Assembly: GCA_964016885.1 (NCBI GenBank)
Contig: OZ024740.1
Coordinates: 92,070,001 to 92,134,000, forward strand
From: Eledone cirrhosa
Taxonomy: Eukaryota
Direction: 5' to 3'
DNA length: 64,000 nucleotides
Part shown: positions 11,878-33,348 of the stretch, in pieces
Numbering within the stretch: the first letter of the stretch is position 1
Layout of the letters: every line of letters starts with the position of its first letter
The notes under the pieces: model-generated
Told to the model about the DNA's origin: nothing
Database searches by the model: none
Seen by the model: the letters and a program-made list of their open reading frames with translations, nothing else
Program-made: the position numbers and the translations under genes

Positions 11878-12085
11878 ATTTCATTTCTGAATTTGTTTAG
11901 CAAGATTCTTTATCTGAAATCGTGTGTTGAAACCGATATTGTTATACTTTGGGAGGGTCATGTTGCCAATAAGAAACACACGCACCAGTTCCTTTCACTT
12001 CAATTTATTATAATAAATTGAAGTGAAAGCTACTGGTGCGTGTGTTTCTTATTGGCAACATGACCCTCCCAAAGTATAACAATAT
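11878..12085. mobile_element. 208-bp palindromic mini-insertion made of the two 3' termini of the 20-27 kb PLE family
   Basis: Left arm matches 20359-20490, right arm matches ~26886-26959; centre aatttattataataaatt; (TA)n on both sides. Confidence 0.9.
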
Positions 12086-14599
12086 ATATATATATATAAA
12101 CATATATACATACACTTACACATACATTCATATACATACATACATATACACGCACATTCATCTACACACATTCATAAATGCAAACCTTCATACACATACG
12201 TAACAACATCATATACATTTCATGTTGATTATATTTAGTTTAAAATATAAAAGATGTTACAGGAGATATATATTAATACAATAATAATTATTATATTTGC
12301 ATTGGTATTTTTTTTCTATTTTGTATGTCTTGATTTTTGTCTAATGAAGATTAGGTTATATTAGTTTCAATACATCAATTTAACATCCATTGGTTTATAT
12401 TAATATCTTCTTCATCTTGATCAATCTCCGATAGGCATATATACTCAAGTCACTATATTTTAGGTTTACGTTAATTATCTTTTATCACATTCTCCTTCAT
12501 TACGAGACGGTTCTTAGTCTTGGTTTCCTGAATTATTATGAAATAATTAGAAGCTTGATATTTATATGTGATATATTTCCATAATTAGGGAGTGTTTTAA
12601 TGAACATTAAACATATTGATATATCGTTGAAAAATCTCTAATAAAATTAGGAAATGATGCTCATGTGACAGTTAACAAACTGTTTTAATGTTCATGATAA
12701 CATAGATTTTAAGAAGGTGTCACGAAGCACTGATCAGAAATATATTAAATAGTTTATCAAACGTTGTATGAATGTACATCGTTGAAGGCATCACCGAATA
12801 ACATTAACAAATATGTGATCTAAGTAATTTTGTCATGAGATTAGTTAGACCATTGACCAAACGATAATTTGCACCAAAGAATTATTGACATCCTCAGATA
12901 AAATACACTCACAAAAAGAACCCAATATTTCGCACCCCGACTTGTGTGGATTATGAAGGTTTCTATACATTTGCACGAATGAAATTGTCTTAGCAAAATT
13001 CACTACGCCCCACATTTTTCTATAGGTGAATATTAAATGTGTGCCAACCTTCTTGTGTGTTTAGGACTTAAATCTACGAAGAACCAATAACTATTCCAGA
13101 TATAATCTCAATTATGTTTATTCTACAGGGTTACCAGTTGTTCATATTTGGCACTGTTTTGTTTCCTTTTTGTCATGCAAAATACATTTTGCACATATGA
13201 TCAATGTAGCAGATGCCCATGATGTTATGTAGTATTTCATTTGTAATGCGAGTATTGTCTTCAGAAAGTCCACTTTCATCATCCAGGTGTCACAAATAGG
13301 TCAACAGATCGGAAATCAAGGCCATGCATGGCCCTAGTTTTACATTCGGAACTAATGTTGCTTTTCAGGTCATATTATTTTAAACCTGCTAATGCTGCAG
13401 ATGTTTGACAATATTTTCAGCTGTTTTTCTGCGATGACTTTGCAGTAGCGATGATCGCACCTGGGTATTTCAAGTGGTTACAAAATGTACAGCTCTTGGC
13501 CATTCTTTTGCCGATCTTTTTTAGTTGTTATAGATGTTTTCTTTTCACAATGCGGATTTTAAATCTAATTCTGGTGACTGTCGTATCTACGTATTTACTA
13601 AAGTGGCGAGATCTCTTTATTACGGTGATTATGATATTGCTGACAGGTTGTCTTCTAATAATGTCGGTGCCAATTCTTTTTCAAATCCTCAGTTAAAATT
13701 CGCCCCCCAGATATGCCGAAGTGTTTATAACAGGATACAACACTACTGACATGATTTCGGTAGTCATACCGTTATAAACAGTATTTCTTCTGCCGCGTTA
13801 TGATATCTTACTACTCCATGATGAGATTCATCTCTCTGCTATCAGAAGTTATATATTATTGTTGTCTATACCAATTTGTTTGATTTCAGCTTTCCAACTG
13901 TTAATCGTGTTACTTAGCGTCTTACCAAATTGTTTATATACGTTCTCACCCTCCTCGGTGAGAGTTATTTTATTCAGCTCTCTTATTCTGTCACACAGTA
14001 CCAGGATATCCTATGATAGCAAACTTTATTTCATATAACATCGTATCCTCAGTGTATCACTTGATGATTCAACCATCTCTGCGTTGAAAAGTGTCTAGCA
14101 ATAAAAGGGTTGCAAATATTCATGATAGAATGTTACATAGATTATGATGTTTCTTATAAGTTCAAAGGCAATCTGCCAACGGCTATTTCAAGGAGAAGAA
14201 GGCAAAGACTAGGATATAATTTTGTTTCTCGTAAAGGTAAAAAAATATTCCATGAATAATATTTTATTTAAATAATTAAGTACTTCGTAAACTTATTTCC
14301 CATGCATATTTACATAACATTTATCATCTTCGTCTCCAAACAACGTTAATGTCAAGCTTTATTATATTTCTCATTGTATCTGCTTTAACCTGCACAAAGC
14401 TATGTACATAATGACATTCAAAAGATTATCGAATAGAGAAAAAATTCTATTAAGCTTACAGCAAAAAGTTTCGAGCACAATCACGACATAACCACATGCA
14501 CATAGACACACCCGCATCATACGCACACATACACACACAGGCACACACACACACACACACACACACACACACATATATATATATATATATATACATATA

Positions 14600-14693
14600 T
14601 AGGAAAATGTTCAAGACCCCGACGCAGGGCTCAGTATTGAGGACTCTGTTGCCTTATGTTCCATCTGGTTCCTTACCACACTTCCTTCGTTAT
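14600..14693. mobile_element. Diverged 94-bp mini-insertion made of the two 3' termini of the 33-38 kb Naiad family
   Basis: Left taggaaaatgttcaagaccccgacg resembles taggaacgagtaggaccccgacg; right gtattgaggactctgttgccttatgttccatctggttccttaccacacttccttcgttat resembles the reverse complement of 33462-33521. Confidence 0.75.
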
Positions 14694-16379
14694 ACATATA
14701 TTTATCTATATGCATATGTGTGAGTGTGTGTGTGGTTTCTTGTTTTCTGAATAAGGAGCTTCGAGGGCCTGAGTTTGCCTAGAATTCCGAGATCGATATT
14801 TGCTTTCGAATAAATCAAATATTTGCGCCAAGCAAATGACAGAAATCCTATGTATAGTCTATCCGCTTTCAATCACAATGACAGGGTTCACCCAAGCTTA
14901 AGCTGCATTTCTTTTGTACAATATGCTACGCACCTGGATCGAACGAAATAATCATTATCCGTGAAACGAAATTCCCGCCGTTTACCCAAACACTCATACA
15001 CAAACATGCACAGAAATCCATACATATAAACACATACATATAATTATGTGTGACTGCGTTTCACTATATGAAGGGGTACATTGAGAACACGCATTTAACG
15101 CTGTCTTATCTATACAATAAAGGTATTTTAATATTTTAGTCTGATTTCCCTGCAGAATGCTTGAACAATAGCTCATCCAAACTAATATTTAAATCCCCTA
15201 GACGTTTTAATTTACATCGACATGTCAGGTCATTAATGCCCTACAAAAACTACAATAATCGGATACATAAATCTTGAAAAAATATTTATGGAGAAGATTG
15301 CATAGGAACACCATCGTCTTTCGATACTAATCATCTTAATGGCAATATATTTCCTGTATATAAGACGCACACATAATTACACGTACACATCCAATATCAC
15401 TATGTCAAATTAAATCGAAATATATTAAAAAATACTCGCCTGGTATCTAGGAAGATGTTCATTATATATAGTTTCATTTTCTAGCACCGTTAGCAAAGTT
15501 CAACCTATATGTCTACAGAATTTGAAATAAATAATTTAATACGAGATAGTATGCGCTATTATATAATATAAATGTATCTATAACTGAAACCATTAGATGT
15601 TTTTGAGTGTGTATTTTCTTGTCTTGTTGTTTTTGATTTTCAATGTTATGGTGTCATATGAAATTGTTTATTAGATTGCTTTATACGAGATCTATGTTTT
15701 CGTATTTCAATTCGTTCAAGTTCATAACAAGCCATTATTTCATGGTGGGCGGAAATAGTTCCATGTTGAACTATAATGTGACACTAATTACCACTTTCTA
15801 GTGTAAATGTATTAACAATAAAACATGTGGAGCAGGTGCAAATGGTGTTTCTTGTTATTCCATAAGGAGTTGCTATTCACTTTTATTTCGGCTATGAATT
15901 GCATTCACATATACGTCTGTCATATCCATGCTTAAATTTTCCATTATGTTCTATGCAAATCACGAATCACAGATTTTGTGTCATACCTAGGGCTAAAGCA
16001 GTAGAGTAGTGAGACATGTTTTTTATACAATTGAGACATACATTTTTCTAAATAGTAGATTCACCATAAGAACACGGTATATATCTCTTTTTCGAATAAA
16101 ATTTGGTGGTATATTATTTAAACAATGTGTCTGTTCCTGATAAAAATTGCATAAATGTGGGTGTACTCTGTTGTATTGACAATCACTGAAGATCAATGCA
16201 ATTATTACCGCAAGCATTGTTTGCAAGAGATTAATTCAATGCAGGAATAAGATAATAGGATGCTCACTGTCCTTTAAATCGAAATCAATTATGTTTAAAG
16301 GCATAGCAATAGCACTTTCTTGTGTTGCTTTAAATACTCTATTTGGTATCAAGATTACTATGACTGAATCCCTCTCCAC

Positions 16380-31470: not shown

Positions 31471-33085
31471 GGGGATTTCTTTCTTCGTTTCTGTGCCTTT
31501 CCTTTCTTCTATCCTACGCCATTTTGTTTGTGTGTGGGTTGCGTGCTCAGTATGCGCATGCGCCACATCCGGGTGTCTGTGTGTGTTTGTGTTCATTTTT
31601 CTACTTTTCTATTTATATTTTTCTATTTGTTTATTTATTTATTTATTTATTGTTGGTTGGTTGTTTGTTCTATGTGTGTGTGTGTTTTCATTTTGTCCTT
31701 AATTGTAAGTTGTGATGTTGCTGTTCCACTCATATTTTCTATTTAATTTTGGTTTTAATTCTTTTATGCTTACTGCCTCTGTAATTTGCCTAAACATTGC
31801 GTCTTTCTTGTGTGTGGATTCTATTTTTATTTCTATGCTCTCTAATTTACCCCTGTGTTCTATCTTAGCATGTTGGTAGAGCACAGATGATTCTTTATTA
31901 TCTTGGAGGTCTCGCCAGTGTTCATTTATTCGTTCCCCTATACTACGAGCTGTCTCACCTATGGACACTATATTTTTGTTTCTACATTGTCCTTCAGTAC
32001 ATCTTATGCTATATACTACATTTCTAGTTTTACAGTTAATATGGGGGCTTATTTTACAGGTTATACATTTCTTATCTATACATGAGCGTCTTTGGAACGG
32101 GTATGTCTTGCTAATAAGTGTGTTTACGGAGGTACCAGGTCTTTCTACTATCTTAATATTGAGATTATGTTTCTTTTGGAATAGAATAGAAAGAACTAGG
32201 AACAAGGCCAATAGAAAAAACTCATGGTATGATAGCAATAAATACCAGAGTGTAATGTTCATCAATACAACCCCTAGAGGCGAACTAGCCTACAAATTTA
32301 GAAGGGCCCTAAAGAAACATAATCTCAATATTAAGATAGTAGAAAGACCTGGTACCTCCTTAAAAACACTTATTAGCAAGACATACCCGTTCCAAAGACC
32401 CTCGTGTATAGATAAGAAATGTATAATCTGTAAAATAAGCCCCCATATTAACTGTAAAACTAGAAATGTAGTATATAGCATAAGATATACTGAAGGACAA
32501 TGTAGAAACAAAAATATAGTGTACATAGGTGAGACAGCTCGTAGTATAGGGGAACGAATAAATGAACACTGGCGAGACCTCCAAGATAATAAAGAATCAT
32601 CTGTGCTCTACCAACATGCTAAGATAGAACACAGGGGTAAATTAGAGAGCATAGAAATAAAAATAGAATCCACACACAAGAAAGACGCAATGTTTAGGCA
32701 AATTACAGAGGCAGTAAGCATAAAAGAATTAAAACCAAAATTAAATAGAAAATATGAGTGGAACAGCAACATCACAACTTACAATTAAGGACAAAATGAA
32801 AACACACACACACATAGAACAAACAACTTACAATTGAAAACACACACAACATGAAAACACACACAAGACAAAATGAAAACACACACACACATAGAACAAA
32901 CAACCAACCAACAATAAATAAATAAATAAATAAACAAATAGAAAAGTATAAATAGAAAAATGAACACAAACACACACAGACACCTGGATGTGGCGCATGC
33001 GCAAACTGAGCACACAACCCACACACAAACAAAATGGCGTAGGATAGAAGAAAGGAAAGGCACAGAAACGAAGAAAGAAATCCCC

Positions 33086-33130
33086 AGTCACTGAAGGGGT
33101 CACATAGTGTGTGACGAAAGAACTATGACT
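33086..33130 (+). ncRNA. Hammerhead copy with a core mutation (CTGAAGG)
   Basis: agtca-CTGAAGG-g-GTCACAtagtgTGTGAC-GAAA-gaa-CTA-tgact. Confidence 0.65.
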
Positions 33131-33348
33131 ATATATATATAAACAACTATCTGGTTGTGGAACCAACCAACCAACCAGAAATTTATAAATTTGTAAATTT
33201 ATAAATATATAATAAATTAAATTGAAGTGAAAGCAACTGGTGCGTGTGTTTCTTATTGGCAACATGACCCTCCCAAAGTATAACAATATATATATATATA
33301 TAATAATAATATACATATATATATAGTAATAATAGAAATAATAAGGTT

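Follow-up and report, generated by a model that had tools for sequence, protein, structure and literature searches.

Four insertions of one family of Penelope-like elements (PLEs) were found in a 64,000-nt stretch of the genome of Eledone cirrhosa (assembly GCA_964016885.1, contig OZ024740.1, positions 92,070,001-92,134,000, forward strand; hereafter the window). Each consists of two inverted arms that end at two different fixed sites of the element, one per side, designated L (the long 3' end) and S (the short 3' end). In a sample from chromosome 1 (C1), 93 copies were paired as L/S, two as L/L and one as S/S, with one copy unresolved, and the excess of L/S was estimated at p ~5e-23 (binomial against a random expectation of 50%, the unresolved copy being scored as a miss). 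Judged by sequence, both arms of a copy would come from one template or one source locus. Twin priming at the two fixed sites on one RNA, followed by the joining of the two complementary DNAs (cDNAs), is considered a little better than an even call as the origin of these insertions.

Pairing of the two ends

For the pairing sample, every locus matching three of the exact end patterns was taken from the first 36.3 Mb of C1 (158 stretches), and arms were assigned by BLAST, by which 194 clusters were obtained. Loci are labelled below by L and a number, and positions on the element are given relative to S. Set aside before the count were 11 fragments of a sister family, one cluster at an assembly gap, one diverged fragment, 20 clusters with a cut or internal partner end, three cut single tails, one unresolved read-through and 61 single arms. 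The single arms comprised 27 flanked by TA and 34 others, and six of the latter represented three L...S pairs split by other DNA. At L078, L111 and L113, outward-facing L and S arms lie 0.5-3.9 kb apart, with a secondary insertion or captured sequence between them.

The preliminary description of the window had proposed a check for long/short pairing far in excess of same-type pairing, and the sample bore such an excess out. Micro-arms were present in 13 of the 93 L/S copies, and three copies were local duplicates, which left 90 distinct ones. In a set of 20 loci chosen because the sequence reads on through L, the 10 partial-tandem copies in which two intact ends could be resolved were likewise all L/S. 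Genome-wide end counts were made by exact-pattern searches of the genome (~3 Gb), all figures being lower bounds: at least 14,259 L ends, at least 13,858 S ends continuing into TA, at least 13,992 arms extending past S and at least 488 arms extending past L. Minis of 34-64 bp were L/S in 448 cases genome-wide, with no L/L and no S/S. At C1:132947049-132947614, an L/S mini is adjoined by a minisatellite that arose from an insertion end: a 46-bp unit made from the L end, repeated in tandem at least 12 times.

The four insertions of the window

The insertions lie at 11878-12085, 20359-26959, 30138-30190 and 31209-33289, with lengths of 208, 6,601, 53 and 2,081 bp, respectively, as had been claimed. 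Two asymmetric ends were confirmed in all four, ATTTC(A/G)TTTCTG at the left and GTATAACAATAT at the right, and the L-to-S spacing on the element was likewise 58 nt. All four are bordered by (TA)n on both sides, the DNA beyond (TA)n differs among them, and their central junctions all differ as described, with L/S stops at -82/-82, about -3390/-3151, +30/-33 and -981/-1115, respectively. The (TA)n flanks would mask any target-site duplication bounding both arms. The components of the insertions are as follows.

11878..12018, minus strand: L arm of the 208-bp insertion, with its 3' end and 58-nt tail at the left and its 5' stop at -82
12003..12085, plus strand: S arm of the 208-bp insertion, overlapping the L arm in a 16-nt palindrome at 12003-12018
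20359..23807, minus strand: L arm of the 6.6-kb insertion, a 5'-truncated copy of the 4.1-kb unit
20359..20416, minus strand: 58-nt tail in the 6.6-kb insertion, nt +27 to +84 of the open reading frame (ORF), S and L both standing at AATAT|CG
20918..23614, minus strand: 898-codon stretch of the reverse transcriptase (RT) and GIY-YIG ORF, equal to residues 368-1265 of the intact ORF in L277
23808..26959, plus strand: S arm of the 6.6-kb insertion, 99.5% identical to the L arm, with an in-frame stop at 25790-25792
26684..26705, plus strand: site corresponding to the 5'-stop cluster of other copies (-275 to -254), the putative 5' end of the template RNA and start of the pseudo-long terminal repeat (pLTR)
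26750..26800, plus strand: candidate minimal hammerhead-like motif in the pLTR (CTGAAGA, stem II, GAAA), picked by eye against the consensus; its two stems fold, and Rfam gave no match to it
30138..30166, minus strand: L micro-arm of the 53-bp insertion, tail only, stopping short of S
30157..30190, plus strand: S arm of the 53-bp insertion, starting at -33; the insertion is among the 448 L/S minis
31209..32179, minus strand: L arm of the 2.1-kb insertion, 5' stop at -981
32174..33289, plus strand: S arm of the 2.1-kb insertion, 5' stop at -1115, beyond that of the L arm, with a 6-nt overlap at the junction

The long end is on the left in all four, as had been stated, and as a rule this orientation did not stand: with the 80 simple pairs of the sample added (n=84), the left end was L in 41 and S in 43, as expected by chance.

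A further explanation would derive the small copies from larger palindromes by deletion, or the palindromes themselves from fold-back artefacts of long-read assembly. The hotspot seen among the minis could come from deletion between direct repeats of a longer L/S copy. Against this, the flanks differ among the four window copies, and the derivation of the copies by deletion from one duplicated palindrome, which the preliminary description had named as fatal to its own model, was not upheld. The arms also carry up to 9% of private differences together with fixed unequal ends, unlike read fold-back, and collapse cannot produce the end rule, which holds in multi-kb and tandem copies. This explanation is refuted as the cause of the end rule and is most improbable as a whole; the four insertions are independent events into (TA)n.

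Structure and class of the element

The unit measures ~4.1 kb, as read from the partial tandem L217, in which the sequence downstream of L continues into the next unit; in the window, the copies of the family are 5'-truncated. L277 contains an intact ORF of 1,265 aa whose start precedes S by 26 nt, which places the tail at ORF nt +27 to +84. The 898-aa protein that had been proposed for an assay of target-primed reverse transcription (TPRT) proved to be truncated, the first 367 residues of this ORF being absent from it. S and L correspond to ORF nt +26 and +84, and both have AATAT followed by CG. ATATCG occurs in the unit at S and L only, and 29 other ATAT sites are unused. Since both sites share ATAT with the (TA)n target, a primer could pair with the template in this element.

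The single ORF combines a PLE-type RT (DKG motif, core motifs A-C) with a C-terminal GIY-YIG endonuclease (EN). The motifs DKSG, DVVSLY, GAAIGVSIAG, YVDD and VVY...YIG were located in L277 at residues 566, 716, 847, 890 and 1160, respectively. Two cysteines stand between VVY and YIG, histidines are present at 1193, 1209 and 1214, and a zinc-finger linker, CIDKKCITC, at residue 1139 agrees with the CX2-5CxxC upstream of GIY-YIG used as a criterion in PMC8557442. Partial tandems forming pLTRs, an inverted 5'-truncated copy and a 3' tail are all present (L217, L262-L281), and the EN is C-terminal, not N-terminal as in Naiad/Chlamys. By the criteria of PMC8557442 these sequence features classify the element as a canonical EN-bearing (EN+) PLE of Neptune or Nematis type, the clade being judged from the linker motif.

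The nearest named homolog was a protein of Octopus vulgaris (69%). Among sequencing runs, one RNA run matched, with a small share and as contigs. Pfam gave nothing above the cut-off for either the 898-aa or the 1,265-aa protein, the RVT_1 match being weak and below it. A PDB search with the element protein gave no telomerase match and a weak match to an intron endonuclease (E 0.21). Rfam returned only spurious microRNA matches to palindromes and weak hammerhead matches in a third family described below.

The upstream partial units of L262-L281 vary in length between 10 nt and 3.3 kb, with three or more units in L267 and in L281. Partial tandems with an upstream unit of 0.7-3.3 kb would need circular or multi-unit templates or template jumps, and circles would also need strand displacement.

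Origin of the two arms

In the 40 pairs with enough overlap, partner arms were discordant at 12 of 1,018 subfamily-diagnostic non-CpG sites, versus 399 expected at random, and 30 of these pairs had no discordant site; a random template pool as the source of the arms is excluded by these counts. Partner arms differed by a median of 2.4%, and separate insertions by a median of 8.3%. Even in old pairs, where private changes set the arms 8-9% apart, the diagnostic sites still agree, and arm identity therefore dates from insertion; continuing gene conversion as the cause of arm similarity is excluded by the same pairs.

These data bear on dual priming, in which two RNAs of one source locus would be used, one per target strand, with an asymmetric protein complex setting the L and S starts. 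Such a process, proposed for L1 in the excerpts of PMC2837659, makes strand displacement unnecessary; one active source per cell would explain the shared variants, joint stops at the RNA start are expected from two RNAs too, and the stops of L180, -810 for the S arm and -255 for the L arm, are compatible with two templates or with two copies of the pLTR. If the two RNAs are equivalent, however, the ratio of 93:2:1 has no natural reason, two or more discordant subfamily sites were met in only one of the 40 pairs (L116, with a short, poorly aligned overlap), and the near-equal stops that lie neither at the RNA start nor at palindromes (-689/-696, -545/-535 and -315/-307) would require coupling. 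Dual priming is regarded as unlikely.

Arm lengths, 5' stops and joins

In the 80 simple pairs, the further-5' arm was S in 39 and L in 23, and the remaining 18 stop no more than 15 nt apart, versus 4.4 such pairs in permutations. The L arm stops short of S in six pairs, and by these arm lengths both arms would need an RNA template. The 5' stops cluster at -275 to -254, where 32 of 276 arms end in a 22-nt window versus 1 and 0 in the adjoining 22-nt windows; such clusters are read as probable run-off at the RNA 5' end. In the window this cluster (26684-26705) overlaps AAAATGGCG, which may resemble a YY1-type start motif. Inserted bases were present at 30 of the 80 joins, and microhomology of at least 2 nt at 39 of the 50 joins without them, versus 14% for random joins.

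A second rival supposes that an L-primed cDNA snaps back and copies itself, that EN then cuts at AATAT|CG to give S, and that central deletions later make the arms unequal. Identical arms and L/S pairing are accounted for in this manner; an overlap or palindrome of 12-41 nt underlies 7 of the 18 near-equal joins, L exceeds S slightly at the five joins located at the RNA start, and both self-priming (PMC3846280) and EN-mediated tail resolution (PMC8557442) have already been proposed in the excerpts of those papers. With fold-back of an L-primed cDNA, however, the S arm can be the longer only after a later deletion, and fold-back of an S-primed cDNA cannot produce the tail. The longer arm was S in 39 of the 80 pairs, with an excess above 100 nt in 27, and pairs with near-identical arms are among them (L201, 0/184 differences). 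Thirteen S-only copies have (TA)n on both sides, the join of L232 has a 17-nt T-run and no A-run, which suggests a free S cDNA end, and the excerpts of PMC11167929 show both sites to be RT starts on RNA. The fold-back process is held to be distinctly unlikely.

Single-arm copies

The preliminary description had made the inversion an obligatory step of integration, which was contradicted by 27 single arms (14 L, 13 S) whose 3' end and 5' junction both adjoin (TA)n, versus 96 two-ended copies; a few of the 27 are local duplicates. Nearest-neighbour distance was 0.018 for the 16 datable single arms and also for the 94 arms of L/S pairs (p 0.94), and by this equal divergence the single arms as products of old decay are ruled out. 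The micro-arms of 8-30 nt suggest a continuum of arm length down to zero.

Related families

The window also contains an L/S insertion of a second family (33462-37786), whose tail measures 80 nt, and at least 8,768 S ends of this family were counted genome-wide. When loci were picked by the S end, 27 of 29 distinct ones proved to be L/S; of the other two, one carries a cut tail and the pairing of one was unresolved. The L pattern of this family held a local variant and matched 13 places; no partner arm was called in 4 of 11 loci picked by L. Genome-wide, the family consists mostly of ~200-bp palindromes with both arms stopping near -62, and 5' stops within -70 to -45 were recorded for 39 of 52 arms; certain joins carry A- or T-runs (L220, L232, L238). 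Two S/S mini-palindromes of this family with an identical join, at 38898-39012 and 39034-39125 of the window, are exceptions to the L/S rule; they look like local rearrangements of the adjacent arm 37691-37786.

The sister family (L084, L128, L153, L157, L165, L167, L186, L191, L202) has the ORF start and S end in common with the main family, another pLTR and a shorter tail (about 41-48 nt), and its paired cases L091 and L191 are also long/short. At 5121-7311 of the window, a third family has ~470-bp tandem units arranged head-to-head, with ~72 extra nt at the left end only. It is probably a non-autonomous retrozyme under the same end rule, as judged from this one instance and from weak matches to Hammerhead_HH9. 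Older palindromes of other PLE-like families, with unequal arms 90-91% identical and decayed ends, occupy 41284-44851 and 52815-56590.

Discussion

In the favoured reading, twin priming on one RNA, an RT-EN protein, probably as a dimer, would nick both strands of (TA)n, and each 3'-OH end would pair through AT with AUAU of one site. Reverse transcription begun at L would then meet the hybrid made from S and displace the S-primed cDNA. Both cDNAs would stop, often at the RNA 5' end, and would be annealed by microhomology or end-joined, with fill-in giving the inverted repeat; where the second end is joined to the first cDNA without RNA copying, a single arm would result. The model of the preliminary description survives in part: fixed ends, one per side, head-to-head variable microhomology-rich joins and non-random pairing were retained, and the obligatory inversion and the left bias were dropped. 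Excerpts of PMC11167929 lend support, as the PLE protein described there cleaves and extends both strands, two RT start sites bound the tail and a dimer is predicted.

Several points weigh against twin priming on one RNA. Both arms are longer than the pLTR in 15 of the 80 pairs, with lengths of up to 3.2 kb, and because of this strand displacement over long distances would be required on a single RNA. Same-type pairing occurs in three cases (L137, L188, L191). A hotspot of microhomology between the tail and -40 to -28 inflates the 448:0:0 count, from which very small L/L or S/S hairpins may also have been lost. Roughly one half of the near-equal stops fall at palindromes or in the RNA-start cluster, a pattern also expected from fold-back, and post-insertion trimming of palindromes can weaken the arm-length test. 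The RNA structure around S and L was no better than that of shuffles (z 0.62). According to the excerpts of PMC11167929, the RT start sites are not homologous to the cut DNA and do not differ between the strands. Selection by exact end motifs under-samples old copies, and the microhomology lengths, being BLAST overlaps, run high relative to an exact random model. One RNA and two RNAs of the same source locus, moreover, look alike in sequence.

For EN-bearing PLEs in general, programmed twin priming is put forward tentatively, as an idea slightly on the doubtful side. One RNA would be threaded through two RT active sites that begin at two AATAT|CG sites, one per target strand, and the leading cDNA would be displaced by the trailing RT over distances of up to kilobases. 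One default reaction would then yield the tail, the inverted copy and the palindromes of solo pLTRs, with single arms as its zero-length limit.

The EN+ PLE insertion unit is described as a pLTR with an adjoining inverted 5'-truncated copy and an optional 30-40-bp tail (PMC3846280; PMC8557442 Fig. 2, excerpts). In PMC3846280 the tail is on one of two inverted pLTRs and self-priming is proposed; in PMC8557442 it is often at one end only, which is ascribed to EN-mediated resolution. The present element shares with canonical EN+ PLEs the inverted 5'-truncated copy, the one-ended tail of first ORF codons, the partial tandems, the palindromes at some joins and the (TA)n targets, and differs in its tail of 58 nt (80 nt in the second family). 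The layout is given qualitatively in the excerpts of the EN+ PLE papers ('often', 'optionally'), with no pairing counts or arm-provenance test in those parts.

The element also resembles PAc (Poseidon, Anolis carolinensis), assayed by in vitro TPRT in PMC11167929, in having two RT starts in the ORF start that bound the tail, and an AT-rich target. For PAc, according to the same excerpts, cleavage and extension of both target strands was shown and a dimer predicted, and both are proposed for the present element. The link of site to strand within one insertion and the inversion are left unexplained in the parts of that paper seen, where 'inverted' is used once, unrelated to insertions. The PAc starts are not target-homologous, whereas ATAT at both sites here matches (TA)n, and by the zinc-finger linker the present element belongs to another clade.

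L1 twin and dual priming, as defined in the excerpts of PMC2837659, are similar in that both target strands prime cDNA and inverted arms are joined internally. In L1 the second primer acts at a variable upstream site, the arms come from different RNA parts with a deletion between them, and the route is a minority one. In the present element neither site varies in position, the two arms cover overlapping sequence and the route is the main one; the process is twin-priming-like but not of the L1 form.

In the openly accessible literature, to which the search was confined (subscription reviews lying outside it), no paper was found that states an L/S pairing rule or twin priming for PLEs, and the excerpts of PMC8969392, PMC13282606 and bioRxiv 10.64898/2026.07.22.740005 added nothing on mechanism. 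Earlier publications (Arkhipova 2013, Craig 2021, Frangieh 2024) already report the one-ended tail, the inverted copy and two RT start sites. Of the two fixed priming sites of the preliminary description, the end sites stood, and two start sites as such are not new, having been shown in vitro for another PLE (PMC11167929, excerpts). As far as was searched, the near-strict pairing, the shared template, the free arm lengths and the shared site motif are new.

The formation of tandem and inverted PLE insertions was called undefined in the excerpts of PMC8557442, as was the PLE cycle, and those of PMC11167929 left two starts and two-strand extension without an insertion model. The present counts tie these facts together, with one site per side, one template and either arm the longer, and make the mechanism testable. 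Tens of thousands of these palindromes resemble miniature inverted-repeat transposable elements or microRNA hairpins, which matters for annotation. In PLE-based insertion engineering, an inverted second arm would be the default product.

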